Assembly (NCBI GenBank): GCA_044360075.1
Contig: JBIKLA010000011.1
Span: 26,668-90,667, forward strand
DNA from: Bdellovibrionota bacterium
GTDB taxonomy: Bacteria; Bdellovibrionota_C; UBA2361; OMII01
Length of the DNA: 64,000 bases
Direction of reading: 5' to 3'
The notes under the pieces were generated by a model. That model was not told where the DNA came from. It saw only the letters and a program-made list of their open reading frames with translations, and did not search any database. Shown here in pieces: positions 5,678 through 63,815 of the stretch; position 1 is the stretch's first letter; every line of letters begins with the position of its first letter. Position numbers and translations under genes: made by a program.

Positions 5678-7294
5678 TTGCTCCGCATCACATACAGCCG
5701 TTGCTCTGGAGCTTACACAGAAGGTCCCACCCAAGCCATCCATTTTGTGGCCCCTCGTCCCGCAACATCGGTTGGCCACCTCCGAACTCACGCAGGGGGC
5801 AGGCGCATGGCTCAGGGGAAAAAATCACTGGCGATACTTCGTGTGCATGCCCCGGCGGTGCCCTATGCCGCCTGCATCGCATGCGGACAGCTGGCGGCTT
5901 GGGCAGCCGGTTCACACATCTCCCTCGCTATCGTGGTGGTGCTCGCGTTCCTGCTCGCCGTGCGCGAACGAGGGCGCATCGCGCCACATGCCGCGCTGCT
6001 CGTCGGGGTCCTCTCGTGTCTGCCAGCTCTCTTCCGGCCCCTTCCTGGCAATTCAAACGAGGACCGCAGCACGCTCGTGCTCGTGAGCGGCGACATCCGG
6101 CGCAGCCAGCCGGGTCAGGTCACGTTTGAGGCGGTAGACATGCTGGGGCAACATCGGCTGAGGCTCACCTGCAGGGCGGTTGAGCTGCCGTGGCGCAACG
6201 CCGGCAACCTGCAGCCCGGTGACATCGTGTGGGTGCGCGGACGATTTGAGCCTGTCGAGCGACAGCTAAGCCCATGGGCGTGGGAGAGCTGGCTGTGGAG
6301 GAGGGGCATCTCCTGGCAGGTGAAAGCGCGATTCATCTCTCGTCCCGTTGCACACACCCATCCGGGATCCTTGAGCGAGGCGCGCGCGTGGCTCAAGGAG
6401 CGCGTTGAGCGGCTGGCCCCCAACCGGCGCGGCGCAGCGGTCTTGCTTTCGATGGCGCTGGGGTATCGCGATGTCCTGAGCGAGCCGGTCGAACGGGCTT
6501 TCACAAGCCTAGGCCTGACCCACCTGCTTGTCGTTTCCGGATATCAGGTGAGCATGGTCTTCGCGGCTGTGTACGGGATGCTGGTGCTCGTAGGCGCCAA
6601 AAGCCTGCGCGTCAGAGGGCTGCGCGCCGCCGTTGCCGCCGTGTCCCTCTCCGCTGCGCTTGCATACGTGCTCTTTATCGGCGCAGAGATGTCCGCGACT
6701 CGAGCCATCATCGCCGCGACATGCGCCTGCCTTGAGGTGCTGTGCGAAGGCGGAAGGCGCTTCGCGCAGCGGTGGGGCGTCGCCCTGCTTATCATGCAGA
6801 TACTGTGGCCATGGGCGATCCTTGAGGTTGGCGTGCAGCTCACCTTCGCCGCGCTGGCTGGCATAGGACTCGGCGCCGTCCTCGGCTTCGGGAGCGCCAC
6901 GAGAACCTTCTTATGGGTGCAGCTATCAGTATGGCTGCTGACCTCAACTATAGTCGCGGCGTGGTCGGGAACGGTCTCGTTGAGCGGGCTGCTGCTCAAC
7001 GTCCTGGCTGCGTCAGCGTGGTCTGCCTTTAACTGTACCGTAGGGCTGCTGGCGCTCACGGTGGCGATGATAAACGGCCCCTTCGGGCTTCCCCTGCTTG
7101 AGGGGGTCATGCGGGCAAATGAGGCACTCACTGCTACTATCCTAGTGGTAACCGAGTGGACGGTATCCCGCTGGGAGCTAGTCGGGACGTCACGTTGGCT
7201 GGCGACAGGGCTTCTGTTTTGGGCGTCGGCCGCCGTCGCCCGGCGCGCCCACTTGCGGCACCGGGCCGCGATGATTGCCGCCCGTGCGCACTAG
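5678..7294 (+). CDS. comEC: ComEC/Rec2-family membrane protein (competence-domain only)
   Basis: Conserved ComEC block SLGLTHLLVVSGYQVSMV and a polytopic membrane profile. The start may be the internal ATG near 5807. Confidence 0.7.
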   Translation: MLRITYSRCSGAYTEGPTQAIHFVAPRPATSVGHLRTHAGGRRMAQGKKSLAILRVHAPAVPYAACIACGQLAAWAAGSHISLAIVVVLAFLLAVRERGRIAPHAALLVGVLSCLPALFRPLPGNSNEDRSTLVLVSGDIRRSQPGQVTFEAVDMLGQHRLRLTCRAVELPWRNAGNLQPGDIVWVRGRFEPVERQLSPWAWESWLWRRGISWQVKARFISRPVAHTHPGSLSEARAWLKERVERLAPNRRGAAVLLSMALGYRDVLSEPVERAFTSLGLTHLLVVSGYQVSMVFAAVYGMLVLVGAKSLRVRGLRAAVAAVSLSAALAYVLFIGAEMSATRAIIAATCACLEVLCEGGRRFAQRWGVALLIMQILWPWAILEVGVQLTFAALAGIGLGAVLGFGSATRTFLWVQLSVWLLTSTIVAAWSGTVSLSGLLLNVLAASAWSAFNCTVGLLALTVAMINGPFGLPLLEGVMRANEALTATILVVTEWTVSRWELVGTSRWLATGLLFWASAAVARRAHLRHRAAMIAARAH

Positions 7295-9491: not shown

Positions 9492-11081
9492 TTACTTTGC
9501 CGAAGCTGTTTGCTCATCCGAGGTCTCGGCCTGCTTACCTCGATCCCCTTTTCCTCGCGAAGAGGTGGAAGGGGGTTCGGGCGGAACCTCGCGAGCCGCG
9601 GCGTGAGAACGAGTGCCCTCCATCTCGAAGGCATATTCATCCGGGCGCAAGCGCCCATCGGGAAGAATCAGTATCTGAACCCCGTGCTCAGCCTCAAGCT
9701 GCGCGATCTCGGCGCGCTTGTTGTTAAGCAGGAAAAACGCCGGCATGGAGCTCAGGCGCGTCTTTACCTTGGCGACGTGACCCACTACGACCGCGGCCTG
9801 AATCTTGCGCAGTGCCTCAAGTGCCACAAGCTCCGGGTTCTTGATGCTGCCCGTGCCATGACAGTGGTCACATTTAATGTGGCTGTGGCTCGTAAGCGAG
9901 GACCGAAGGCGCTGCCGAGACATCTCAAGGAGCCCAAACTGGGAGAGTCGCCCAAGCTCGATACGGGCCTTATCCTCCGAGAGCGAGTCCTGGAGCCGGC
10001 GCTCAACGGCGCTGCGGTGCCGCTTGTCGATCATGTCGATGAAATCGATAACGACCAGGCCCCCAAGATCGCGCAGGCGCAACTGGCGGGCGATCTCCTC
10101 AGCCGCCTCAAGGTTGGTCTTGTAGGCCGTTTCCTCGATGTTTTGGCTGTCCGTGGCTTTGCCTGAGTTAACGTCGATCGCCACGAGCGCTTCAAGCTGC
10201 TCGATGACGATGGCGCCGCCCGAGCGGAGCTTCACCTCGCGGGCGAGGGCATCATGAACCGCCTGGTCCATTCCGAAGTGTGTGAAGATCGGCTGCTTCT
10301 CCTCGTAGAGGCGGATGCGCGAGCGGTAGCGCGGCATCACCTGGCTGACGAACTCCTTCACGTTGCGGAAGGTCTTGACGTCGTCAATGATGATCTCGCG
10401 CACGTCCGGCGTAAAATAGTCTCGAATAACGCGGGTCGTGAGATTGTTGTCCTTGAATAGAAGGCAGGGGGCCTGGGCGGTCTGGTTGGCGCTCAGGATG
10501 CTCTCCCAAAGCTTGAGTTGGAGGGTGAGATCCCGCGAGAGCTCACTCTGTGAGCGGTCGAGGCCTGCTGTCCTGATAATCATGCCGATGCCGGCCGGCA
10601 TCTCAAGCTCCCGTGACAGCCTGCGCAAACGCACCCGCTGCTCGTTGTCGTTAATCTTTCGCGATATGCCGCCCCGATCGCTGCCCGGCATAATGACTAG
10701 GTATCGTCCAGGCAAGGAGAGATAGGTCGTAAGGGTCGCGCCCTTGAGATCCCGCTCCTCCTTAACGATCTGCACCACGAGCTCTTGGCCTGGCTCAAGG
10801 ACGTCTTGGATTCGCACTTTGCCGGACCGGCCAGGGGCGTTCTTGAAACACGAAGGATGAACGTCGTTAATCTGGAGGAAACCGTTTCTGTCGGTGCCGA
10901 TGTCGACGAAGGCCGCCTGCAGGCTGGGCTCAATCCGCGAAATCCGCCCGCGGTAAATGTTCCCCTTGGCTTTCTTGCCTACGTTCGACTCAAGCTCGAG
11001 CTCAGCTAGCTGCGAGCCCTCGATAATAGCGATGCGGCACTCCTCGGGGTGCACCGCATTGATAACCATTCTCCGGTCCAT
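9492..11081 (-). CDS. rng: ribonuclease G (RNase E/G family, catalytic domain only)
   Basis: S1 domain at the N-terminus (IYRGRISRIEPSLQAAFVDIG), DNase I-like domain and Zn-link CxxC (CDHCHGTG); 529 aa. Confidence 0.85.
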   Translation of the reverse strand: MDRRMVINAVHPEECRIAIIEGSQLAELELESNVGKKAKGNIYRGRISRIEPSLQAAFVDIGTDRNGFLQINDVHPSCFKNAPGRSGKVRIQDVLEPGQELVVQIVKEERDLKGATLTTYLSLPGRYLVIMPGSDRGGISRKINDNEQRVRLRRLSRELEMPAGIGMIIRTAGLDRSQSELSRDLTLQLKLWESILSANQTAQAPCLLFKDNNLTTRVIRDYFTPDVREIIIDDVKTFRNVKEFVSQVMPRYRSRIRLYEEKQPIFTHFGMDQAVHDALAREVKLRSGGAIVIEQLEALVAIDVNSGKATDSQNIEETAYKTNLEAAEEIARQLRLRDLGGLVVIDFIDMIDKRHRSAVERRLQDSLSEDKARIELGRLSQFGLLEMSRQRLRSSLTSHSHIKCDHCHGTGSIKNPELVALEALRKIQAAVVVGHVAKVKTRLSSMPAFFLLNNKRAEIAQLEAEHGVQILILPDGRLRPDEYAFEMEGTRSHAAAREVPPEPPSTSSRGKGDRGKQAETSDEQTASAK

Positions 11082-33622: not shown

Positions 33623-36052
33623 GTGTTGATGACTCAACGAGCGATGTGTTGCAATCGGTGCGCACTCTCTCTGCTCCTCGCAGCGGTGGCGGGCTGGCTT
33701 GCTGCCTCGACAGTCCCCGCTCTCGCTGAGCCACCGAAGGTCTTTCCGGGCGAGTATGTAGTTACGCTTCCGTCGAGTCAGGGACACGCCGGCGCCTTCT
33801 CTCTGGCCGCAAGCCCCTCATTCAGCTCCAGGGTGGGAGACGTCGTCGAGGTAATTAACGCAAAGACCTTAAAAGTCTCCGTGGCTGAGCCCCAAGGCGC
33901 AGCTCGCGCTCTTGATTCGGATTCCGGCGGCGCTATTCCGTATGACCCGCAGCAGGACCGCTGCAAGGATATCTTGGCGGAGGGCTTAGCAGAAACCTGC
34001 TCACCTAACTACCTCCTTAAGGCCTCGGAACTCATGCCCAACGATCCCTCCTTCGGCCAGCTATGGGGAATGTCAGATGCTCAGGGGATCTCAGCCCCCC
34101 GCGCCTGGAGCAGCTTCGTCGGCGCTTACGCCGTAGTTGTCGCAGTGATTGACACCGGCATCGACTACAACCATCCAGACCTCGTGGCAAACATGTGGCG
34201 CAATCCCGGCGAAAGCGCCGGCAACGGGGTTGACGATGACGGGAACGGCTACGTCGACGACGTGCACGGCATCAACGCGATTACCTCCGCGGCAAACCCA
34301 GGCAACCCCATGGATGATCACTTTCACGGCACTCACGTGGCCGGAACCCTAGGGGCTGTGGGAAACAACTCAAGAGGCGTCGCCGGGGTTAATCATCGGG
34401 TAAAAATCATGGCCGTGAAGTTTCTGTCGAGCAACGGTAGCGGAAGCCTCTCTGATGCGGTGCGGGGTATCGATTACATGACAATGATGAGGAGCTCCTA
34501 CGGGATTAACATCCGCGTGGCCAACAACTCATGGGGAGGAGGGGGCTACTCCGGAGCCCTTGAGCAGGCCATCGCCAGGGCCCGCGACGCGGGGATAGTC
34601 TTCGTCGCGGCTGCCGGCAATGACGGGATAGACACCGACGCCTCATCATCATACCCCTCCGGCTATGAGGTCGACAACGTAGTGTCCGTCGCCGCAATAG
34701 ACCGGAACCAGAACCTCGCGAAATTCTCTAATTACGGAGCCACGACCGTCGACATCGCGGCACCTGGTGTGGACATCCTGAGCACCGCCCCGGGTGGTGG
34801 CTATCAGAAGCTCTCCGGAACCTCGATGGCCACGCCGCATGTATCCGGAGCGCTCGCCCTGCTCCTCGGGCGAAATCCGGGGTTGAGCTACCTTCAGGCT
34901 ATTAACACAATGTACCTCTCAGGCCGGTATAGGGCATCCCTCGTCGAAACCAGCGGCGGGCTGCCGCTCGTGCGCACCCAGCGAGTCATCAACGCGGGCC
35001 GGATGATGTTTAATGAGACCGTTCCTCTGCCAACTCCGCCAGCCGCCCTGCAGCCTTGCGGATACGATTTCCGGGCGTCCAACCTGCTAACAAGCGGCAC
35101 GGTTGATACTTCGGCCGACAACGGACTCCTGGTAAACCAGTCAGACGAAGGGAACTTCTACAAGGTCGACCTGCCGTTCTCCTTCCCGTACTTCCGCGAG
35201 AGCGTAAATGCAATCTGGGTCTCTCCGAATGGCCTTGTGTACATGCAGCAGCCCTCGCTTATCGACTACCAGCATGGCATACGGGCGCCAAAGAATTCTA
35301 TCGCCGTGCTGCAGACTGACCTGGTTCCGCGCGACACAACCCAGGGTGTGCGGGTTGCAGTGGGGGCGGATAAGGTCACCGTAATGTGGAGGACCGAGCA
35401 TTACAGCTACCCGGGACAGGGGGTCATTGTCGCGCGGCTGACGATTAACTCAAGCGGCGTCATAGCAACGTCTCTCCACTTCGGCGATGACGGCAACCTG
35501 TCCGATCTACGGGCAAAGGTGGTCGGCGACCCCTTCGCAGCTCCTGCGGTTGAGCCGAAGGCCCTCATGGGCCTTTCAGGGCTGGCGTCGATGTTTTCGT
35601 CGACGGTAGACCTCGCAACGTCGCAACGGGCGCTCATTTCGGCTGCGCAGGAGCCGCTGGCACTCGGCGTGGAGATGACGACTAACTGCAAAACCATTCC
35701 GCCGACCGACCGGGGCGACCGCGAGGGGCCAGTGGTTTCCTGGATTACCATCTTCAAGGAGCCCAAGCGCAGGAAAGAGATACCTATCAACGTGGTTTTT
35801 GGCGCGACGGGAACCGGCGCTATTCCCGTTCGGTTTTCGATTAACAACGTGGCCTGCCGCCGCACCATCAGGGTACCGCTGCGCTCCGGAATCGGCCGCA
35901 TGACCGCCCGCATACCCCGAGGGGTGCAGTCTTTCGGGGTCAGCTCGGGCGCGGTTTCCAAGAAGACTGCCTTTGCCAGCAATCCGCCGGGGCGCACCAA
36001 ATACACAAATAGGGAGCTGTGCGAACTCACGCTCCAGACGATCGCGAAATAG
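33623..36052 (+). CDS. secreted subtilisin-like serine protease (peptidase S8) with a long C-terminal extension
   Basis: Catalytic triad blocks VAVIDTGIDYNHPDL (Asp), HGTHVAGT (His) and GTSMATPHVSGA (Ser), plus a signal peptide. Confidence 0.85.
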   Translation: MLMTQRAMCCNRCALSLLLAAVAGWLAASTVPALAEPPKVFPGEYVVTLPSSQGHAGAFSLAASPSFSSRVGDVVEVINAKTLKVSVAEPQGAARALDSDSGGAIPYDPQQDRCKDILAEGLAETCSPNYLLKASELMPNDPSFGQLWGMSDAQGISAPRAWSSFVGAYAVVVAVIDTGIDYNHPDLVANMWRNPGESAGNGVDDDGNGYVDDVHGINAITSAANPGNPMDDHFHGTHVAGTLGAVGNNSRGVAGVNHRVKIMAVKFLSSNGSGSLSDAVRGIDYMTMMRSSYGINIRVANNSWGGGGYSGALEQAIARARDAGIVFVAAAGNDGIDTDASSSYPSGYEVDNVVSVAAIDRNQNLAKFSNYGATTVDIAAPGVDILSTAPGGGYQKLSGTSMATPHVSGALALLLGRNPGLSYLQAINTMYLSGRYRASLVETSGGLPLVRTQRVINAGRMMFNETVPLPTPPAALQPCGYDFRASNLLTSGTVDTSADNGLLVNQSDEGNFYKVDLPFSFPYFRESVNAIWVSPNGLVYMQQPSLIDYQHGIRAPKNSIAVLQTDLVPRDTTQGVRVAVGADKVTVMWRTEHYSYPGQGVIVARLTINSSGVIATSLHFGDDGNLSDLRAKVVGDPFAAPAVEPKALMGLSGLASMFSSTVDLATSQRALISAAQEPLALGVEMTTNCKTIPPTDRGDREGPVVSWITIFKEPKRRKEIPINVVFGATGTGAIPVRFSINNVACRRTIRVPLRSGIGRMTARIPRGVQSFGVSSGAVSKKTAFASNPPGRTKYTNRELCELTLQTIAK

Positions 36053-38354: not shown

Positions 38355-39863
38355 CTAGGGATTAAAGCTCTTCAAAAGCGTCCTGATCCATCCCTTCACA
38401 TCTCCCGGAGCCGAAGCTGAAGAACCAGCGGCTGGGAGGGTCAGGATCTGCGGCTCCGTCATGGCTGAACCCGATCGGCACGCAACCTTTACCATAAAGA
38501 GCACCTGCGTGTCGGACGAGGGATCCGAAGGCCTCGGGGCCGTAAACGCGAAAGAAGCGCCGGCATAGCCCGCCACAGACGTGACGTTCTGCACACTGAT
38601 GCGCCCAAAGGGCCCGGAAGGCCGACCCTTATCCATGGCGCGGACATACAGTACCGCCTTGCAGCTCTCCGCCACTGCGCTTGAGAGCGCAACGGTCGCA
38701 TTAAAGGCCTCCGCCGTGGTGTTAGCCAGCGAAAGCGATGCTTGGTGGTACGGCATTCGCTCAATACAACGCATCGAGCGCGAAATGGCCGTCTTCATCG
38801 TGGAACGGGCGCCCCCCGAAAAGTGGTCCATGGTCGGGGACAGGACCGGGTTCATTATCGAATTAGGCTCATTGTCATGGACCGCGCCGAGATTGTGTCC
38901 CACCTCATGCGCGAGCAGAAGGGGCTGCAGGGCGTCGGTGATGTAGCGAGAAAGCCCGATATTGAACCGCAGGTTCCCCGAGCAGGCGGTGCGCACATAC
39001 GCAATTCCAACCGTCCTGCCGACTAGCTCCCGGCCGGTAAAGAGATGGTAGAGATCGGCCCTCCCTTGCTCCCTCTTAAGCCCTTGGCGAAAAGCCTCAA
39101 GCAGCGCGCCCGCGTCTACCTCACCCGGCGAAGGAACCCCCGACGTCGCCACTCCCTGATTCGTGACGCGAAAGCGGATCCCCATCGAACTTGCGTAGAG
39201 CACCTCGCTGGCATGCAGCACTGCCGCGATATAGTCACCCGAGGCCTGGCCATACTTAAGAAAGAAATCGTAATCGGCACGGACTGCTATCTCGACTACC
39301 CGAGGCGGATTAAACGGCTGCGAATCGAGATCACCAAACGGTGAGACAACGCCGCGCGAAGTGCCGTTTTGCGCCCGCTCAACAGTATGCTCGCCACCGC
39401 TGCTGCCGCACGGCAGGGTGCGGGCGGACGCCTTTGAATACCGAACATTGCGCGCTGAGACTGTACCGTTCTCCTGCACAAGCCTGAAAGAAACCGAGGA
39501 GGGCACTCCGCGGCGCGATGAAGTAAAGAAGATAAGGGTCTTGGTGCCCATCCGCGTAGCAGCAACCGGCGAGTTCGAGCCGCGGCCCTTGCGCGGCCGT
39601 GACGCTCCCTTAAGGTGCACTGCGCTTGCCGTCCCAGGATTGTTTCCGTCAAGCTCAAGCTCAAACTGCTCAAGCCCGTACGGGGTCTCCACTGAGAAGT
39701 AGACATGCTGAGCCGGAGCCACTGTTGTTATGGTCGAGAACGTTCCGCGGACGGTTCGCTCTGCCGCGGCATCGGGAAGCCCAATAGCAAGGCCTAGAAA
39801 GAAAGCCCCAACGTTCCCCCAGAACCATCCGTGATGAGCAGCCATGATACATCTCCCTTGCAT
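38355..39863 (-). CDS. secreted metzincin-type zinc metalloprotease (reprolysin/M12B-like)
   Basis: Extended zinc motif HEVGHNLGAVHD with a downstream Met-turn region and a signal peptide. Confidence 0.75.
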   Translation of the reverse strand: MQGRCIMAAHHGWFWGNVGAFFLGLAIGLPDAAAERTVRGTFSTITTVAPAQHVYFSVETPYGLEQFELELDGNNPGTASAVHLKGASRPRKGRGSNSPVAATRMGTKTLIFFTSSRRGVPSSVSFRLVQENGTVSARNVRYSKASARTLPCGSSGGEHTVERAQNGTSRGVVSPFGDLDSQPFNPPRVVEIAVRADYDFFLKYGQASGDYIAAVLHASEVLYASSMGIRFRVTNQGVATSGVPSPGEVDAGALLEAFRQGLKREQGRADLYHLFTGRELVGRTVGIAYVRTACSGNLRFNIGLSRYITDALQPLLLAHEVGHNLGAVHDNEPNSIMNPVLSPTMDHFSGGARSTMKTAISRSMRCIERMPYHQASLSLANTTAEAFNATVALSSAVAESCKAVLYVRAMDKGRPSGPFGRISVQNVTSVAGYAGASFAFTAPRPSDPSSDTQVLFMVKVACRSGSAMTEPQILTLPAAGSSASAPGDVKGWIRTLLKSFNP

Positions 39864-43421: not shown

Positions 43422-44129
43422 ATGCGAGTAGAGCTTAAGAACCTCTCGAAGAGGTACAAGGATGCCGACCGAGAACTGACGGTTATTAATCGGCTGACCT
43501 TCTCCTTTCCCGAGCGGGGCACGGTGGCCATCATCGGCCGCTCCGGCATCGGCAAGTCAACCCTTATGCACCTTCTTGGAGGGCTCGACACTCCATCTGA
43601 GGGCCAGGTGCTGTATGGGGACGCTGACATTAGCGCCCTCGAATCTGACGCGCGCGCCGCATTTCGCGCGAAAAACGTTGGCTTTATCTTTCAGTTTCAC
43701 CATCTCCTGCCAGAGTTTTCCGCAGTAGAGAATGTGGCCCTGCCCCTCATCATGTCGGGCATGCGCGACGATGAGGCGCACGAACGCGCGTCGGCGCTCC
43801 TTGACCGAATGGGAATGAAGCCGCGCGAGGAGCACAGGCCATCGCAACTTTCGGGTGGGGAGCAGCAGCGCGTCGCGATAGCACGGGCGCTCGTGACACG
43901 GCCGCGAGTCGTGCTTGCGGACGAGCCGACGGGCAACCTCGACGTCGTCACGGCAGCCGAAGTGCAGGAGCTGCTCATGCAAATGAACCGGGAGCTTGAG
44001 AACACGCTTATCGTCGTCACCCACAGCCACGAGCTTGCCCGCACCATGGATCTCGTCGTCGAGATGCTTCCGGGCGGAGGATTAATTGAGCATCGCGCGA
44101 AGAATGCGGGACGAGAGGAGATAGGATAA
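43422..44129 (+). CDS. lolD: lipoprotein-releasing ABC transporter ATP-binding protein LolD
   Basis: Walker A GRSGIGKST, ABC signature LSGGEQQRVAIARAL, and Walker B VVLADEPTGNLD. Confidence 0.9.
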   Translation: MRVELKNLSKRYKDADRELTVINRLTFSFPERGTVAIIGRSGIGKSTLMHLLGGLDTPSEGQVLYGDADISALESDARAAFRAKNVGFIFQFHHLLPEFSAVENVALPLIMSGMRDDEAHERASALLDRMGMKPREEHRPSQLSGGEQQRVAIARALVTRPRVVLADEPTGNLDVVTAAEVQELLMQMNRELENTLIVVTHSHELARTMDLVVEMLPGGGLIEHRAKNAGREEIG

Positions 44130-46435
44130 TGCGGCTCTTCGCAAACATGCTTGGCCTGCTTGTGCCGTTGGCTATCTCCGCCGGAGGCATTTTGCCGCTT
44201 CCGGCTCATGCACAGGAGGCAAGATCTTTTGTTGTGCGGGACGTGGAGATTGATGGCAACCGGCGCATCGACACGGGTGCGGTGCGCTCCCAGATCGAGA
44301 ACCTCAGCGGCCGGGTCTCTGAGGCCCAGCTAAGCGAGGACGTAAAGACACTCTATAACTCCGGATATTTTGACCAGGTACTCTTAAGCATTCTGCCGCA
44401 CGGGGATGGGACCGTAACAGTAAAATTCACGGTCACCGAGAAGCCAATTGCTCGAAAGATACTCATCAAGGGCAACGACGAGGTTTCAGAGGATGACCTG
44501 GCCGATGTGCTTAAGCTGGAGGGCCGCCGCTTCGTTGACCGCAGCAAGATTCAGACCCTCATGCGCAAGGCACAGCGTTACTACCAGGCCCAGGGCTACT
44601 ACGACGCCACCCTCGACTACTCGTCGACCCCCGTAGGCGAAAACGAGGTTGACGTCACGTTCCATGTGAACGAGGGAAAGCGCTACTACGTGCGCGAGGT
44701 CGTTCTGCAAGGGGTGCACGACCTCGATGAGGATGAGATGCGAGCTCCGCTCCAGACCCAAAGATATAAGTGGTGGAGCTCGTGGCTTTTCGGGACGGGC
44801 AAAGTTAGTGAGGAGATGACGGAGGCGGACAAGCAGATCCTTAAGCAGTACCTTCTCGACCACGGGTATATCGAGAGCAACGTCGGAGACGCCTCGATCG
44901 AGAAGCGCGAGGACGGCTTGTACGTCGTATTCGACGTCGCCGAAGGGCAGGAGTTCAAAATTGGCAAGATTACGGCCAGCGGGGACCTCGTCGACGGGTC
45001 GAAGGAAAAGACCGTCGAGGACCTCAAGAGTGAGGGGGGAGAGGTCTTTAGCGCCTCGAACGTGCGGGCAGACATCTTTACCATCACCGACCGCTTCGGT
45101 GACGAGGGATACGCATTTGCCAACGTGGTTCCGAACACGTCTCTCAACAGGGACAATGGCACGGTCGATCTCGACTTCTCCAGCACCAAGGGCAAGCCAG
45201 TAAAGATCGGCAAGATAACGATTACGGGTAACGAAAAGACATATGACAACGTTGTCCGGCGCGAGATGCGCATTCAGGAGCAGCACCGGTATAGCGGAAC
45301 AAAGGTGCGCAAGAGCCAGACGATGCTTGAGCGGCTCGGCATCTTCGACGAGGTTACGGTCAACAACAAGCCAACCGCCGATCCCGCCGTTATCGACCTC
45401 GACGTGAACGTCAAGGAGGGCTCAACCGGAAGCTTTACTGCGGGAGCAGGATACTCCACCGCAAACGGCGCCGTCTTCAACACAAAGCTCTCCGAGAACA
45501 ACCTGTTTGGAACCGGAAACAAGCTTAACCTTAACCTCGACTTCGGATCCCAAATCTCCAACCAGGTGCTGTCCTTCGACAACCCGCGCCTGAATGACAG
45601 CCACTTCTCCTTCGGTGCCGACGTCTTGAGAACAACCCGGCAATACCAAGACTTTAACCGCGAGCTGGCTGGAGGCTCGACCTCTCTCGGATATCCGGCT
45701 GAGCTGGTGTTCGGCGAGTGGGCGCAGGACATCGCAATGACAGCGAAGTACGAGATACTCGCAACCGACATCCGCGATGTGGCAGATGACTCGGCGCAGC
45801 TTGTAAAGGACTCGGTCGGGCGATCATCGGCTTCGGCCGTGACCCCGGGACTCTCGCGCAGCACCCTCGACAACCCAGGCAATCCCACGAAGGGCTCTCG
45901 CCAAAACCTCACGGTTGAATTCGCGGGTCTGGGCGGCGACCAGCAATTTTATCTTTTCGAGGCGAGAAACGCGTGGTACTACCCGCTTCTTAAGGGCGAA
46001 TTCGGCGAGTTCACGCTGGCCGACCGTACCTCTTTCGGGTACGGGCAGAGCCTTAACGACGACCCATTTCCTCTCTACCGGCGATTCTTCCCTGGAGGCA
46101 TCAACTCGGTGCGAGGCTACCAGAACCGCACCCTCGGCCCTGCGGACATCAACGGCCAGGAGTATGGAGGCAGCAAGCAGTTCATCAATAACGTTGAGCT
46201 CATCTTTCCACTCGTAACCTCTGCCGGCTTGCGGGGAGTTGTTTTCTACGATGTTGGCCAGGCATACGATGACAATGAGGCATTCGAGGTAAGCGGCTTG
46301 CGGCAGGGCGTCGGCTACGGTATCCGCTGGAACTCCCCGATGGGCCCCATCCGCTTCGAGATCGGCTATCCTATAGCCCGCCAAGAGGGAGAGGCGGCTC
46401 AGCAGACGATGTTCTCCTTCGGCGGTCCGATGTAG
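44129..46435 (+). CDS. bamA: outer-membrane protein assembly factor BamA
   Basis: 768 aa with a signal peptide, five POTRA-sized repeats, and an Omp85 barrel ending ...FSFGGPM. Confidence 0.85.
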   Translation: MRLFANMLGLLVPLAISAGGILPLPAHAQEARSFVVRDVEIDGNRRIDTGAVRSQIENLSGRVSEAQLSEDVKTLYNSGYFDQVLLSILPHGDGTVTVKFTVTEKPIARKILIKGNDEVSEDDLADVLKLEGRRFVDRSKIQTLMRKAQRYYQAQGYYDATLDYSSTPVGENEVDVTFHVNEGKRYYVREVVLQGVHDLDEDEMRAPLQTQRYKWWSSWLFGTGKVSEEMTEADKQILKQYLLDHGYIESNVGDASIEKREDGLYVVFDVAEGQEFKIGKITASGDLVDGSKEKTVEDLKSEGGEVFSASNVRADIFTITDRFGDEGYAFANVVPNTSLNRDNGTVDLDFSSTKGKPVKIGKITITGNEKTYDNVVRREMRIQEQHRYSGTKVRKSQTMLERLGIFDEVTVNNKPTADPAVIDLDVNVKEGSTGSFTAGAGYSTANGAVFNTKLSENNLFGTGNKLNLNLDFGSQISNQVLSFDNPRLNDSHFSFGADVLRTTRQYQDFNRELAGGSTSLGYPAELVFGEWAQDIAMTAKYEILATDIRDVADDSAQLVKDSVGRSSASAVTPGLSRSTLDNPGNPTKGSRQNLTVEFAGLGGDQQFYLFEARNAWYYPLLKGEFGEFTLADRTSFGYGQSLNDDPFPLYRRFFPGGINSVRGYQNRTLGPADINGQEYGGSKQFINNVELIFPLVTSAGLRGVVFYDVGQAYDDNEAFEVSGLRQGVGYGIRWNSPMGPIRFEIGYPIARQEGEAAQQTMFSFGGPM

Positions 46436-56709: not shown

Positions 56710-58074
56710 TTACCCTTCAACGCGAACGAGGTGATACTTCTTCTTTCCGCTGCGAAGCACAAGAAAACCATTCTCCACCACCTTCGTGTCTCGAATACGG
56801 AGCGTCTCGTCTGAAACGCGCTGATTGTCGAGGTAGATGCCACCGCCCTGGATGAGGCGCCGCGCCTCGCCCTTCGACTTGGCCAAAGTTGCGGCGAGGA
56901 GCGAGAGGATATCAAGTTCCTGAACCTCACTCATCGATAGCGTCGTTGTTGGGGCATCCGCGAAGAGCTCCGAAAGCTGATCTTTCGAGAGCCCCTCAAG
57001 CGAGCCCCCCCCGAAGAGCGCCCCTGCCGAGCGTTTTGCCTCCGCGGTCGCCTCGGCGCCATGAACGAGAGTGCAGACCGCATCCGCAAGGACGCGCTGC
57101 GCCTCACGCTGCTCAGGGTGCGCCTTAACCTGCTGCTCAAGCTGCTCGATGCGCTCACGGCTCTCGAACGTAAAGACCTTGAGCATCCGGATTACGTCCG
57201 TATCCGGCACGTTAAGCCAGAACTGGTGGAACGTGTAGGCGCTTGTCATCTCTGCGTTGAGCCACACGGCGTTGCCCTCGCTCTTGCCGAACTTGCGCCC
57301 CTCGGAGTTTGTGACGAGGGGGAAGCACAGCGCGTACGCCTCCTGGCTCAGCTTCCTGCGGATAAGCTCGAGGCCCGCCGTCAGGTTGCCCCACTGGTCC
57401 GAGCCTCCGATCTGAAGCTTGCAGTTGTGCTTCTGGTACAGGTGCAGGAAGTCAAAGGCCTGAAGAAGCATGTAGCTGAACTCAGTGTACGAAATGCCGT
57501 CACCGGAGAGCCTGCTCTTAACGGTCTCTTTGGCGATCATGTAATTGACAGTGAAGTGCTTCCCGATGTCGCGCAGGAAGTGGAGCATCGTGACGTCCTT
57601 AAGCCACGAGATGTTATTGACGAACGCCGGCGTTACATCACAGCCTGCACGCTGCCACAAAAGCTTTGCCTGCTCCTCCTGGAGCCTGGTGTTTGTGGCG
57701 ACCTGCTCTAGCTCAAGCAGATTTCGCTCGGCACTCTTGCCGCCCGGGTCGCCGATCATGCCCGTCGCTCCACCGAAGAGAAGTATCGGCTTGAGGCCAG
57801 CTTTGGTGAGGTGGATGCTCACAATGAGAGGCACGAGATTCCCCACCTGAAGGGATGGAGCCGTTGGATCAAACCCGACGTAGAAGCTGTCCCCTGGCTT
57901 TACCTTTGAGAGAGCCTCGGGATCCGATAGATCCTGAATGAGCCCGCGCCACTGCAATTCTTCTAAAAGGTTCATATCGCTCGCACTTGTAGATTTTTGC
58001 GTAAGGTCAAACATTTGATAGCATACGCCGCCACCCTTTAACACTGTCATCCCACATGAAAGCTTCGATCCCAA
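56710..58074 (-). CDS. tyrS: tyrosine--tRNA ligase
   Basis: HIGH-type motif (GFDPTAPSLQVGNL), KMSKS-type motif (KFGKSEGN), and C-terminal S4 domain. The start is probably MFDLTQ (58014). Confidence 0.9.
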   Translation of the reverse strand: MGSKLSCGMTVLKGGGVCYQMFDLTQKSTSASDMNLLEELQWRGLIQDLSDPEALSKVKPGDSFYVGFDPTAPSLQVGNLVPLIVSIHLTKAGLKPILLFGGATGMIGDPGGKSAERNLLELEQVATNTRLQEEQAKLLWQRAGCDVTPAFVNNISWLKDVTMLHFLRDIGKHFTVNYMIAKETVKSRLSGDGISYTEFSYMLLQAFDFLHLYQKHNCKLQIGGSDQWGNLTAGLELIRRKLSQEAYALCFPLVTNSEGRKFGKSEGNAVWLNAEMTSAYTFHQFWLNVPDTDVIRMLKVFTFESRERIEQLEQQVKAHPEQREAQRVLADAVCTLVHGAEATAEAKRSAGALFGGGSLEGLSKDQLSELFADAPTTTLSMSEVQELDILSLLAATLAKSKGEARRLIQGGGIYLDNQRVSDETLRIRDTKVVENGFLVLRSGKKKYHLVRVEG

Positions 58075-59180
58075 ACGGCATCTGCGAGGCGCTCCGAGAG
58101 CGCCGGGAGGAGGGTGCGCTTCGAACTCTCGTCAAGCCGGGAACGGGCATCGATCTCTGCTCTAATGACTATCTCGGGATATCGCGGCTGCTCGTGCCAG
58201 AAGCCGGGAGCGGAGCCACAGGCTCAAGGCTCGTAAGCGGCAACAGCGCCGAGCACGAAGCGCTTGAGGCGTTCCTGGCCGAATTTCACCAGGCAGAGGC
58301 CGCGCTTGTGTTCAGTTCTGGCTACGAAGCCAACGTAGGTCTGCTCGGGAGCATCGGTTCCCGCGGCGACACGATCATTTACGATGAGCTCGTGCACGCC
58401 TCCATGCGAGATGGGGTGCGGCTGAGCGCCGCCCGGTCGTTTTCATTCAGGCATAACGACCCCTGCGACCTGCGCAAGAAGATCGCACATGGACGAGGGG
58501 AGGTGTTCGTTGCGGTGGAGTCGATCTACTCCATGGATGGCCACGACGCCCCGCTACGCGAGCTCGTGGAGGTATGCCGGGAGCGCGGCGCTTTCCTCAT
58601 CGTCGACGAGGCGCATGCCACCGGCCTCTATGGCTCTCGGGGCGAGGGGCTCATTCAGTCCCTGAACTTGCAACCGGAAACCTTTGCCCGTATCCACACC
58701 TTCGGCAAAGCGCTGGGTTACCGCGGGGCTACGGTCGTTGGATCCAAGGAGCTGCGCGAGTACCTGATCAACTTCGCACGATCCTTTATTTACTCAACGG
58801 CGTGCGACAGCGCGATGGTGCGCACTATTCGCCGCGCCTACGATATTATGCGCGAGCTCAACCAGGAGCGCGCCGAGCTTTTCGACCGGGTGCAATTCTT
58901 CAAGCAGCTGCGAGAGCACAATCCGGGGCTGGCATTTCTCATCTCCGATTCCCCGATACAGGGTGTCATCATTCCGGGTAACAGCTCAGTTCTCAGGGCG
59001 GAGGAAGAGCTCAAGCGCCATGGCTATTTCGCACGCGGAATTCGCTCGCCGACCGTCCCGTCCGGCCAGGAGCGCATCCGTCTCTGCCTGCACAGCTTCA
59101 ACTCGCGCGAAGAGATAGCAGGCGCCGTTGGGCTGCTGGCCTCGCATGCCCGCCAGGGGGGGCTCTCACATGTCGCATGA
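58056..59180 (+). CDS. bioF: 8-amino-7-oxononanoate synthase-like alpha-oxoamine synthase (BioF family)
   Basis: Block-by-block match to BioF (SNDYLGIS, SGYEAN, ESIYSMDG, VDEAHATG, TFGKALG with the PLP lysine, IRSPTVP). Confidence 0.75.
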   Translation: MKASIPNGICEALRERREEGALRTLVKPGTGIDLCSNDYLGISRLLVPEAGSGATGSRLVSGNSAEHEALEAFLAEFHQAEAALVFSSGYEANVGLLGSIGSRGDTIIYDELVHASMRDGVRLSAARSFSFRHNDPCDLRKKIAHGRGEVFVAVESIYSMDGHDAPLRELVEVCRERGAFLIVDEAHATGLYGSRGEGLIQSLNLQPETFARIHTFGKALGYRGATVVGSKELREYLINFARSFIYSTACDSAMVRTIRRAYDIMRELNQERAELFDRVQFFKQLREHNPGLAFLISDSPIQGVIIPGNSSVLRAEEELKRHGYFARGIRSPTVPSGQERIRLCLHSFNSREEIAGAVGLLASHARQGGLSHVA

Positions 59181-60534: not shown

Positions 60535-60771
60535 ATGGCCAAGGCCGCAAAAGAGACTTTCTTCCTGATTTCATCCGAGGGAACGGGCTACTTCTATACC
60601 AACCGCAAGAACAAGAAGAAGGGCAAGGGCGAGAACAAGCTCAAGGTCCGGAAGTACGATCCGGTCGCCCGCAAGCACGTTCTTTTTGAGGACAAGAAGC
60701 TCTCCAAGCTTAAGAAGAAGTACGCGCCGAGCGCCGCCTCGGGTGACACCGAGCCGTCCAAGAAGAGCTAG
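60535..60771 (+). CDS. rpmG: 50S ribosomal protein L33 with a C-terminal Lys-rich extension
   Basis: MAKAAKETFFLISSEGTGYFYTNRKNKK... matches the L33 core; the extra ~25 aa are basic. Confidence 0.85.
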   Translation: MAKAAKETFFLISSEGTGYFYTNRKNKKKGKGENKLKVRKYDPVARKHVLFEDKKLSKLKKKYAPSAASGDTEPSKKS

Positions 60772-60800
60772 TAGGGCCGCCTAGAGCTTTAGAGGAGCCC

Positions 60801-62690
60801 ATGATTCTTGCCGCGCAGCCCCAACCCGGTTTGGCAAGCGGAACCGACGGCTCTCAATCCCCATCGGCTCCTTCGTCAAGCCAGGCACCCAAGACGGGCC
60901 CGCAACAGTCGGCGCACGCAGCAAGAGCTGTGAGAATTCATCCGGCAATCACGCAGCTTGCCGTAGGTATCGCCCTAATCGCTGCAAGTATTGTGGCCTA
61001 CTGGCTCACAGAATCTGGCCTTGACCAGGAGAGATTCTCTTTCTTGACGCTCTCTCTTGCCGGTCTTTCAGCGGTAGTGGCGCTGTTCGAGTCAACGCAA
61101 ATCTTGCTCAGCCGCGACCGCTTCTCAAACCCGCTCTCACTCTTTCCGGGCGCGGGGGTGGCCCTAATAAGCCTCGCCGCTGTCGCAACGGCGACCATCT
61201 CTCCGGGCCCAGCCAACTGGGCCATGACAACGGGCCCAGCTCTTGCTGCGGGAGTGTTCCTGGTTATCCGAGCATCGATCGTTCGCTACTGCAACACAGA
61301 TAGGAATGGCGGGCACCTCTTCTTCCCAGCCCACTACGTTCCCTCGCAGGTCAAGCTCGGGGATCTCTTTACCCTGCAGCCTGGGATGGTCGCGCCGGTC
61401 GATGCGCGCATCGACAGCGGCAGCTGCGCGCTCCTGGAGCGCTACCTGTCGCCCGAGCCGCACTTTACGGTGAAGGACGAGACCGATATAGTTTTCGCCG
61501 GCTCTGAGGTGGTCGGTGGTCAGGCCCAGCTCACCGCCCTCTCGGGCTACGAGGATTCCTGTCTGCGCAGCCTTGAGCGGCTCGTGGAGCCGAAGCTAGA
61601 GAAGGTCGGCACAAGCCTTCTTCAGGAGGACCTGCGGGCTCGCACGGCCACCGCTTACATCCTGCTCTTCATTTCAGTTGCTTCGGCCATCTTGTGGGAC
61701 GAGCGGGCCGGCAGGGCCTGGGAGGTCCTGAGCGCCGCTGGCCTCGTTCTCTTTTCCTCTGTGGTGTACCAGCTGGGCGACCTTCTCTTTGCGAGGCGCC
61801 GGGAGCTAGGCCGTTCGTGGGCACGTCGTGGGCTTGTCATTACCTCGGAGAGCAGCATTCGGAACCTATGCGCCGTCTCCAAGGTGCTCATCGACCCTAG
61901 CAGGCTTGATGTCGGTTCACTCATAGAAGCTCGCGAGCTTGAGATACTGGATGATCGGGTCGGGCGCGAGGAGCTGTGCGAATGCCTCGCGTCGGTTTTA
62001 GGCCGGGCGGAAGATCCTGCCCTCGCTGCGGCGGGCGATCTGTGCCAACGGGTAGCTGGCGCTATAACACCTGAGCGGGCTCTTTCATTCAAGGAGTACG
62101 GAGGCAGCGGTGCGAGCGGCACCGTAAGGGGAGTGCCCGTTACGATTGGCACGGAGGAGCTTCTCGTTGAGCGCGGAATTCTCATTCATCCCTCCGAGAG
62201 CAGTATTGAGGTGCCAGCCGATGAGCGCGCGCTCTTGGTGGCGATCGGGGGCGAGCTCGTGGCGCGCTTCTGGATTAAGTTTGGCCAAGCGGCTCTCTTT
62301 ACGGGGCAGGATGGGCGGAGCCCGTGGGAGCCCGGAGTTCAGGCAGGCATCTCGCAAGGGACGGTCGGCGAGGTGACGGCATCAACCCTGCTCGTGAGAG
62401 GCCAGGAATCTGACGTCCTAGGCCGGGGAGCTCCCGCCGAAGTTGCTCTCTTCAGCGGCGATCGGTTCGAGCTTCCAAAAGCGGCTGTCGTAGCCCTGGT
62501 TCCGAGGCTGTATGCGCTGCCGTCCCTACTGCGCGAATGCAACGCCCAGGCGAGGCTTATTGAGCGCGGCAGGGTCCTGATTGCGTTCGGAACCTTTGTG
62601 TCGATCTCGGTGGTCTTTCTGGGCTTCTTCTCGCCTCTGGTCGCCTCTCTAGCGGTAGCCCTGGTCGCTGCCGTCCTTTTTCTTCTGTAG
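60801..62690 (+). CDS. P-type-ATPase-like polytopic membrane protein with degenerate catalytic motifs (probable pseudo-enzyme)
   Basis: Actuator-domain-like block (LGDLFTLQPGMVAPVDARIDSGSCALLERYLSPEPHFTVKDETDIVFAGSEVVGG), but DKTGT is replaced by SKVLIDPS and GDGxND by SGDRFE. Hydrophobic segments are at positions typical of P1B ATPases. Confidence 0.5.
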   Translation: MILAAQPQPGLASGTDGSQSPSAPSSSQAPKTGPQQSAHAARAVRIHPAITQLAVGIALIAASIVAYWLTESGLDQERFSFLTLSLAGLSAVVALFESTQILLSRDRFSNPLSLFPGAGVALISLAAVATATISPGPANWAMTTGPALAAGVFLVIRASIVRYCNTDRNGGHLFFPAHYVPSQVKLGDLFTLQPGMVAPVDARIDSGSCALLERYLSPEPHFTVKDETDIVFAGSEVVGGQAQLTALSGYEDSCLRSLERLVEPKLEKVGTSLLQEDLRARTATAYILLFISVASAILWDERAGRAWEVLSAAGLVLFSSVVYQLGDLLFARRRELGRSWARRGLVITSESSIRNLCAVSKVLIDPSRLDVGSLIEARELEILDDRVGREELCECLASVLGRAEDPALAAAGDLCQRVAGAITPERALSFKEYGGSGASGTVRGVPVTIGTEELLVERGILIHPSESSIEVPADERALLVAIGGELVARFWIKFGQAALFTGQDGRSPWEPGVQAGISQGTVGEVTASTLLVRGQESDVLGRGAPAEVALFSGDRFELPKAAVVALVPRLYALPSLLRECNAQARLIERGRVLIAFGTFVSISVVFLGFFSPLVASLAVALVAAVLFLL

Positions 62691-62887: not shown

Positions 62888-63280
62888 ATGCTGGAATCTT
62901 TTATTCGGGAGGCGAGAATGACATACGGCGATTGTGAGGTTTTAAAGGGTTCTGATTCCGGTTTCGCCACATCGGTCATCGATGAACTTCTCGACGGTTC
63001 AAAGGGTTACGCAAACGGGCCAGAGAGGGCGCTTCTTTCCGCCCTGCTATTCGATGGGGTGCAAGCATACATTCATTATGCGCTTGCCTCGGCACCGAAG
63101 GAGAAAGCCCGCTATACGGAGGCTTTTCACTGGGTGATGGACACCGGCGTAGAATACGCCTTCTCATTCAACAACGTGTGCGAGGCTCTCGGACTAAACC
63201 CCGATTATCTTCGTTTCGGGTTGGCGAACGCCTCCACCAGCCTCCTTAGTGAGGCGGGCAAGTCCAGGCGAAACTTTTAG
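62888..63280 (+). CDS. hypothetical protein
   Basis: ORF only; probable start at the internal ATG (62918). Confidence 0.35.
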   Translation: MLESFIREARMTYGDCEVLKGSDSGFATSVIDELLDGSKGYANGPERALLSALLFDGVQAYIHYALASAPKEKARYTEAFHWVMDTGVEYAFSFNNVCEALGLNPDYLRFGLANASTSLLSEAGKSRRNF

Positions 63281-63521: not shown

Positions 63522-63815
63522 TTACTTGGTGCGAATTCTTAGCTCGCGTACGCCCGTGGCGTCTTGGGCAATAAGCTCAAGGTGCTGCAACGAGCCGCCC
63601 TTCTTAAAGTAGCCCTCGTCGTCCTCATTGGCAAATTCGATAAAGAGGATGTCTGACTCGAAATGGTAGGCCTTAACTCGTCGTACGCGGTCGAGAAGCC
63701 CCAACTGAAGCTTTTCATCTAATTCATTGACCAGTCTTTCCCAAAGGACGGGGTTGTTTCCTTTTGCTGATCCGCTGGTCATGGGGCACCCTTCAATATG
63801 CTTAACGCTGCTCAC
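63522..63815 (-). CDS. hypothetical protein (97 aa)
   Basis: ORF with an LWERLVNELDEKLQLGLLDRVRRVKAYHFE segment; no confident assignment. Confidence 0.35.
   Translation of the reverse strand: MSSVKHIEGCPMTSGSAKGNNPVLWERLVNELDEKLQLGLLDRVRRVKAYHFESDILFIEFANEDDEGYFKKGGSLQHLELIAQDATGVRELRIRTK

Follow-up and report, generated by a model that had tools for sequence, protein, structure and literature searches.

What a P-type ATPase becomes once its catalytic motifs have been lost is the question raised by a gene in a 64,000-nucleotide stretch of Bdellovibrionota DNA (contig JBIKLA010000011.1, positions 26,668 to 90,667 of the forward strand), which we refer to as the window and number from its first letter. 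It is customary to define P-type ATPases by DKTGT and to regard them as pumps with obligate coupling. A preliminary description of the gene had recognized the shape of such a pump in a protein with degenerate catalytic signatures, and had proposed a retained pseudo-enzyme. Our analysis supports this proposal. With a probability of about 0.7, the protein, here called the pseudo-ATPase, is a pseudo-enzyme that descends from a P-type ATPase of the P1B (heavy-metal) type and is maintained by selection; that it is functional and does not pump is highly probable. The open reading frame (ORF) is intact over the 629 codons claimed previously, and its exact bounds and upstream site are as follows.

60801-62690, + strand: pseudo-P1B-ATPase ORF, 629 residues plus stop, ATG start (ORF listing)
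60791-60797, + strand: Shine-Dalgarno-like site AGAGGAG, with GGAG at 60794-60797, 3 nucleotides 5' of the ATG (read from the sequence)

Homology to P1B-type ATPases and the fate of their motifs

The Pfam scan of the 629-residue protein returned the actuator domain (PF00122, E1-E2_ATPase) at residues 182-299, with 42.8 bits (gathering cutoff 28.1), and neither the PF00702 hydrolase nor the HMA domain (PF00403). The NCBIfam models for P1B pumps scored far under their cutoffs (TIGR01525, 42.8 versus 346 bits; TIGR01511, 27.6 versus 397 bits; TIGR01512, 32.6 versus 313 bits). These results agree with the earlier view of a P-type ATPase shape in which only the A-domain can be recognized. A profile of the family matched Legionella CopA (3rfu) with E=3.7e-13, covering the A-domain, M3/M4, the phosphorylation site and the N-domain, and aligned to A. 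fulgidus CopA across the N-terminal transmembrane (TM) helices. In hhalign against three true P1B pumps, the probability was 98.8% (E=4.5e-17) over residues 48-597.

An AlphaFold2 (AF2) model obtained with the family alignment as input (predicted local distance difference test score (pLDDT) 84.7, predicted template modelling score 0.77) begins with a disordered tail (1-45) and four TM helices, after which come a beta-rich A-domain, a hairpin of TM helices, the P/N headpiece of alpha/beta structure and a second, final TM hairpin. When the PDB was searched with Foldseek, ZntA, CopA, ATP7B, CadA and HMA4 led the matches (E 8e-19 to 4e-15, 640-720 columns). KdpB followed (E to 1e-14), and then P2/P3 pumps. 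The full-length matches, Na,K-ATPase among them, had a probability of 1.00. The structure prediction that had been suggested as a check therefore found a P-type ATPase fold. The AF2 helices and hydrophobicity agree on eight hydrophobic or helical segments arranged 4+2+2 as in P1B pumps, so that the P1B-like topology described before also stands. The actuator domain, the A/P/N headpiece and the TM-bundle fold are those of the superfamily formed by P-type ATPases, and the eight TM helices, which include the extra N-terminal MA and MB, are those of the P1B group. The protein is a true homolog of P1B-type ATPases. Its parts, all on the + strand, are as follows.

Residues 1-46 (60801-60938): disordered N-terminal tail rich in Ala, Ser, Gln and Pro (AF2 pLDDT <50 for 1-45; composition)
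Residues 47-166 (60939-61298): four N-terminal TM helices, equivalent to MA, MB, M1 and M2 (AF2 helices 48-71, 76-103, 111-133 and 140-165; hydrophobicity; A. fulgidus CopA alignment)
Residues 175-270 (61323-61610): actuator (A) domain (PF00122), with the codons of the TGES position within 61431-61463
Residues 271-342 (61611-61826): M3-M4 hairpin (AF2 helices), with the CPC position within 61761-61778
Residues 343-374 (61827-61922): first half of the P-domain, with the D365 codon at 61893-61895
Residues 375-500 (61923-62300): N-domain, with L-D384-D-R386 at 61938-61961 and AEDPA at 62001-62021
Residues 501-572 (62301-62516): truncated second half of the P-domain, with VRGQES within 62388-62426 and SGDRFE within 62451-62477
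Residues 573-629 (62517-62687): M5-M6 hairpin (AF2 helices 573-606 and 612-628; hydrophobicity)

The N-domain also holds a G435-x-G437 loop and the stretch IG450-T-E452...ERG. The tail stands where real pumps carry a metal-binding domain and has no CxxC, and the N-terminal metal-binding domain reported missing is indeed absent.

The motifs were mapped on 157 sequences aligned with MAFFT, ten of them true pumps. The counterparts in the pseudo-ATPase are given below, the pump motif first.

PxDG: P199-V-D201-A
DES: L-E213-R
TGES: S217-P218-E219-P220, with Gly replaced by Pro
CPC: V321-V322-Y323, with no Pro in M4
DKTGT: D365-P-S367-R-L, with Asp kept and Ser in place of the first Thr
SEHPL: A403-E404-D405-P-A (403-407)
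GxG: G435-S-G437
vGn: G450-T-E452
TGD: Q519-G520-gap
Lysine segment of motif III ('PEDK'): lost in a deletion of ~27 residues
GDGxND: V532-R533-G534-Q535-E536-S537, with the Mg-ligand Asp replaced by Arg

The losses of TGES (read before as SPEPH) and of CPC were thus confirmed, and those of SEHPL, TGD and the motif-III segment go beyond what had been noticed. DKTGT had been described as destroyed. The motif is degenerate, but the phospho-acceptor Asp itself is kept as D365 and is invariant in all 34 close relatives, as is S367. The hinge GDGxND had been read as SGDRFE, which proved to be a mis-registration; the hinge is VRGQES (532-537), and SGDRFE (552-557) belongs to the later 'aGtDvAlE' segment. 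Neither of these two corrections alters the conclusion. A gapped hhalign placement of GDGxND on 'VLGRG' was rejected as well. The ungapped MAFFT placement on VRGQES was preferred because it matches an AF2 strand (529-532) and helix (535-540), and because the 'aGtDvAlEtADVaL' block then aligns with 'SGDRFELPKAAVVAL'.

R533, G534, E536 and S537 are likewise invariant in the 34-sequence close clade. Among the members of the distant clade, the D365 position is Asp in only 68 of 112 and otherwise Glu, His, Trp or Phe; the R533 position is Ser, Asn or Asp and the E536 position Thr, Ser or Leu. E219, the Glu of TGE, is present in the window protein, in only 10 of the 34 close relatives and in essentially no distant ones. 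The His position of SEHPL is Asp in 30 of the 34 close relatives.

Taken as marks of an enzyme, DKTGT, TGE(S), TGD, the motif-III Lys, GDGxND and PF00702 are all missing. Among the marks of the P1B group, the CPx/xPC site with its M4 Pro, SEHPL, scores above the NCBIfam cutoffs and the N-terminal CxxC domain (common but not universal in the group) were not found, and the M5-M6 hairpin aligns without the metal-ligand residues of P1B pumps. The GxG loop and G-N turn of the P1B N-domain are recognizable at the sequence level. Without Mg ligands, the motif-III Lys, TGD and a conserved TGE Glu, the protein would presumably neither form nor hydrolyse an aspartyl-phosphate, and without the M4 Pro/Cys and the M5/M6 ligands it would not bind or occlude metal. 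It should accordingly be incapable of pumping and of E1P/E2P cycling.

Selection and positional orthology

We examined whether the gene is under selection with the ratio of non-synonymous to synonymous substitution rates (dN/dS), a check also suggested in the preliminary description. Against near-identical relatives, 15 synonymous and 2 non-synonymous differences were counted (dN/dS ~0.05, binomial P=2e-7 against neutrality). The ratio was 0.13 against a 73%-identical orthologue (dS 1.4) and ~0.10 against a 61%-identical one, for which dS was saturated. Values of 0.05-0.13 indicate strong purifying selection, and lie at or below those of the neighbouring bioF (0.07-0.18) and of a beta-ketoacyl-synthase (KAS)-like gene (0.23-0.37). 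Homology, loss of catalytic residues and purifying selection, which together define a pseudoenzyme operationally, are all found here, with inactivity itself predicted from sequence.

A word-indexed search identified 25 full-length relatives with 34-100% identity. An exhaustive profile search of 1.8 billion representatives (of 50%-identity clusters) gave 94 matches at E<=1e-30 and 526 at E<=1e-10. The matches comprised ~35 'core' proteins above 400 bits, a few intermediates and >100 proteins of 640-750 residues scoring 90-190 bits. True pumps, in which every motif is present, appeared only from about E=1e-20. A motif scan and the alignment revealed that >100 of the best 150 matches have none of the motifs, and that DKTGT, TGES, CPC, TGD, GDGxND and SEHP occur in no non-pump protein of the family. 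When the word-indexed search was seeded with the distant clade, three members were recovered (P0205 and P0206, both new, and P0134, already known), the rest being true pumps. In total there are >140 full-length intact relatives. As to whether orthologues retain DKTGT, which had been posed as a further check, none keeps the full motif, and all are full-length. The named sources are metagenome-assembled genomes of uncultured Bdellovibrionota, Bdellovibrionales or 'Pseudomonadota/delta-proteobacterium' from lakes and estuaries, and the relatives are annotated only as 'hypothetical protein' or 'cation transport ATPase'.

The gene lies directly downstream of rpmG in a conserved series of genes, and the two adjoin in every related locus, those of the distant clade included.

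60535-60771, + strand: rpmG, ribosomal protein L33 (TIGR01023, 51.1 bits)
59128/59170-60363, + strand: KAS-like protein, tightly coupled to bioF, with the end of which it overlaps; synteny kept at all related loci
58056-59180: bioF

The order tyrS (on the - strand), bioF, KAS-like gene, rpmG, pseudo-ATPase gene is kept in 11 GTDB genomes, at every GTDB locus that has enough flanking sequence. In the distant clade TyrS is 57-58% identical and the pseudo-ATPase only 28%, and the gene still directly follows rpmG, with homologs of the window's ~120-residue ORF, YacG and 96-residue ORF downstream. Taking into account this same position with the same neighbours, we regard the distant 'outer' proteins as divergent orthologues. 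Overall, identities of 28-55% for the pseudo-ATPase where TyrS has 57-79% indicate faster evolution than that of the neighbours. This is one ancient single-locus gene, faster than its neighbours yet never lost, and a core gene of uncultured Bdellovibrionota under purifying selection. The fold, the dN/dS values and the full-length, motif-less orthologues in the same chromosomal position thus support the earlier proposal that a pseudo-enzyme has been retained, and speak against a pseudogene in decay.

The two clades also suggest how the motifs were lost. The P-domain of the distant clade is full-length with its motifs gone; in the window's clade the Lys segment is additionally deleted and D365, R533, G534, E536 and S537 are fixed. 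A distant clade without motifs but with a whole P-domain, and a window clade with a further deletion, point to stepwise degeneration.

The gap between the rpmG stop and the pseudo-ATPase ORF is 29 nucleotides on the same strand, and a promoter and terminator scan found no terminator-like site in it, the sites listed falling inside the ORF. Based on this arrangement, rpmG and the pseudo-ATPase gene are probably co-transcribed. An Rfam scan of the window gave one tRNA only and no match near the pseudo-ATPase gene. The rpmG product is a Cys-less (non-zinc-ribbon) L33 of 78 residues, with a C-terminal extension of ~20 residues rich in Lys, Ser and Pro past the core of ~55 residues. The KAS-like protein scores far under every NCBIfam KAS cutoff (best 83.8 bits versus 407) and is possibly a divergent KAS reserved for the pathway to pimelate/biotin precursors.

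Regional constraint, proposed role and surrounding genes

Concerning the part of the protein on which selection acts, the majority-residue frequency was calculated for each region, given here as core / outer relatives.

N-terminal tail: 0.24 / 0.14
N-terminal TMs: 0.40 / 0.27
A-domain: 0.55 / 0.40
M3-M4: 0.56 / 0.31
P-domain: 0.53-0.54 / 0.33-0.36
N-domain: 0.64 / 0.42
M5-M6: 0.51 / 0.31

If the N-terminal tail is left aside, conservation is poorest in the TM helices, and the N-domain is the most conserved part, with the lowest proportion of non-synonymous differences (0.09-0.11, compared with 0.17-0.27 in the TM regions, 0.14-0.25 in the A-domain, 0.15-0.31 in the P-domain and 0.39-0.44 in the tail). 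Residues conserved in at least 85% of sequences superfamily-wide are D201, G207, E213, G234, S235 and G240 in the A-domain; G437, G444, G450, E452, L455 and G459 in the N-domain; and, in addition, G344, D384, R386, A481, A488, F551 and the start Met. No TM-helix residue reaches this level. D384 and R386 form a family-specific 'LDxR' at the P-to-N junction and, together with G437 (95%), G450 (100%) and E452, reach at least 95% conservation throughout the superfamily.

In ATP7B, G1099, G1101, G1149 and N1150 are near ATP, and the H1069Q mutation leaves the dissociation constant of the isolated N-domain for ATP unchanged (PMC3203118). The equivalents in the pseudo-ATPase are G435, G437, G450 and T451; the glycines are kept, and the His of SEHPL is Asp. 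Because constraint peaks in the N-domain, where the glycines of GxG and G450 that contact ATP in real P1B pumps are preserved, a headpiece-centred function is the most likely. The cytoplasmic headpiece would then be the working part, a membrane-anchored module that binds a nucleotide, another ligand or a protein partner, with the TM bundle serving mainly as its anchor. Such a protein could act as a sensor or scaffold, probably co-expressed with L33. A ligand-binding scaffold or sensor headpiece as the specific mechanism is put forward tentatively from these conservation patterns. In the window's clade, the invariant D365 and R533, the latter at the old position of the Mg ligand, may be paired in a salt bridge of structural importance that occupies the dead active site.

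The preliminary description had named a scaffold, a sensor and a channel-like remnant as options. The first two fit better and the last less well, because the TM helices are the least conserved part bar the tail and the N-domain the most conserved. A channel or passive-transport remnant, in which the eight-helix membrane domain is functional and the headpiece a vestigial plug or gate, would account for the retention of all eight TM helices in P1B topology and for the membrane-proximal E98, P146 and W299-D-E-R motif conserved in the close clade. It would not, however, account for TM segments that are the least constrained apart from the disordered tail, or for superfamily-conserved residues (at least 85%) that are all cytoplasmic bar the start Met, and the ion-pathway signature (M4 Pro/Cys) is lost. 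We consider a channel remnant unlikely.

We also considered the possibility that the protein is a still-active P-type ATPase or HAD-type phosphotransferase with a remodelled site and a substrate other than those known. D365 would be the nucleophile, S367 would serve for the Thr of DKT, R533 for Mg2+ or the motif-III Lys, and E536 and S537 would be new ligands. The invariance of these residues and G534 in the close clade at the former motif I and IV positions, and the retained glycine scaffold of the N-domain, are what such an enzyme would lead one to expect. On the other hand, the orthologues found at this locus in the distant clade vary at the D365, R533 and E536 positions. TGD is gone, the TGE Glu is variable, and a deletion has removed the motif-III Lys segment. 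In M4-M6 both Pro and metal ligands are missing, conservation of the TM helices is poor, and there is no PF00702 match. Residual catalysis of this kind thus appears very improbable. A decaying pseudogene or annotation artefact (a chance long ORF in 60% GC DNA), to which the missing motifs and the faster evolution than that of the neighbours might point, was rejected with near certainty by dN/dS (P=2e-7), the size of the family of intact relatives and their conserved synteny, and is also opposed by the confident AF2 fold and the Shine-Dalgarno site.

We therefore return to the maintained pseudo-enzyme with a headpiece-centred role, against which several points have to be weighed. The conserved glycines, which are the only ground for deducing ligand binding by the N-domain, could have a structural role and no other, and the SEHPL His position is Asp or Glu. 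Some residual or altered chemistry would be compatible with the invariance of D365 in the close clade. The link with rpmG could be one of position only, and no partner was found, the ~120-residue neighbour having no recognizable fold and not always adjoining the gene.

The remaining genes of the locus and of the window examined here are as follows.

62918-63280, + strand: helical protein of ~120 residues (also at L001 4268-4627, L018 8185-8535 and L019 8197-8553)
63277-63498, - strand: YacG-type zinc-finger protein (DNA gyrase inhibitor family, PF03884), convergent to the locus
63522-63815, - strand: conserved ORF of ~96 residues with no Pfam match, convergent to the locus
24335-26701, + strand: 788-residue ORF with no Pfam family at E<=0.001
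33623-36052, + strand: subtilase
38355-39863, - strand: reprolysin-like M12 metallopeptidase
44129-46435, + strand: BamA (five POTRA domains and Omp85)
9492-11081, - strand: RNase E/G
5678-7294, + strand: ComEC

The ~120-residue protein is highly conserved and represents a family of 107 clusters (47-93% identity) confined to the same uncultured lineage. Its gene adjoins the pseudo-ATPase gene downstream in the nearest and most distant clades and not in the middle clade. Searches of Pfam, NCBIfam and PDB sequences and folds gave no match (AF2 pLDDT 78.8). As a clue to function this ORF gave no lead, with no PDB match and no adjacency in one clade, and a functional partnership is only possible. 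YacG and the ~96-residue ORF are syntenic even in the distant clade (L018-L020). The context genes are in keeping with the chromosome of a diderm and possibly predatory member of the Bdellovibrionota. A scan of the eight largest ORFs of the window revealed no canonical P-type ATPase.

Comparison with known P-type ATPases

We found no published description of the family in the literature on pseudo, inactive or degenerate P-type ATPases, on FUPA families or on Bdellovibrio, although our coverage was incomplete and an earlier description is possible. In its fullest form, our proposal is that these stand-alone pseudo-P-type ATPases are the first such family to be recognized in bacteria. Early in a lineage of Bdellovibrionota, a P1B pump of ancient origin would have given up pumping and become a membrane-anchored switch or scaffold that senses a nucleotide or ligand and is co-expressed with L33. 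The motifs would have been lost first (distant clade), after which part of the P-domain was deleted and the Asp-Arg pair fixed (window's clade). We offer this scenario with considerable reserve. If true, the P-type fold has a second, non-pumping use, shown by a large, ancient and selected family, and nature provides a 'dead' system for asking what the A/P/N headpiece does without phosphorylation. The finding also draws attention to a conserved core gene, at present mis-annotated, in a lineage of uncultured and probably predatory bacteria. The impact is restricted in that there is no functional clue, cultured host or identified partner.

Among characterized proteins, the P1B pumps CopA, ZntA, CadA and ATP7A/B share with the pseudo-ATPase the eight TM helices (MA, MB, M1-M6) and the A, P and N domains, and are homologous over nearly the full length. 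The A-domain PxD...E...AGS core, the G344 glycine of 'GvLiK', the N-domain GxG and 'vGn...e.Gi' have been kept. Unlike these pumps, the pseudo-ATPase is without TGES, CPC, the K, T, G and T of DKTGT, the SEHPL His, TGD, the motif-III Lys, GDGxND, the M5/M6 metal ligands and the N-terminal HMA domain. Since every enzymatic criterion for membership fails, a classification among the P1B pumps would be wrong. The top true pumps against the distant-clade profile are Cu-ATPases of the CcoI/FixI type (with the PF12156 N-terminal domain). Judging from match ranking alone, these may be the nearest active relatives and hint at the ancestral subtype, but they carry all the catalytic motifs and metal-binding domains, unlike the pseudo-ATPase.

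The closest published precedent that we found is provided by the alveolate guanylate cyclases (P4GC). In Cryptosporidium, in P4GC-beta, in gregarines and in Tetrahymena, a P4-ATPase (flippase) module is kept despite altered DKTGT/LDGET motifs, and the module is still essential with its ATPase activity suspected to be modified or lost (PMC13466520). As in the pseudo-ATPase, a P-type module has been kept as a folded unit with alterations in the motifs of the phosphorylated Asp and/or the A-domain Glu. The P4GC modules are eukaryotic, of the P4 type and fused to a cyclase that provides an evident output, whereas the pseudo-ATPase is bacterial, P1B-derived and stand-alone, without a fused effector, and its loss of motifs is far more complete.

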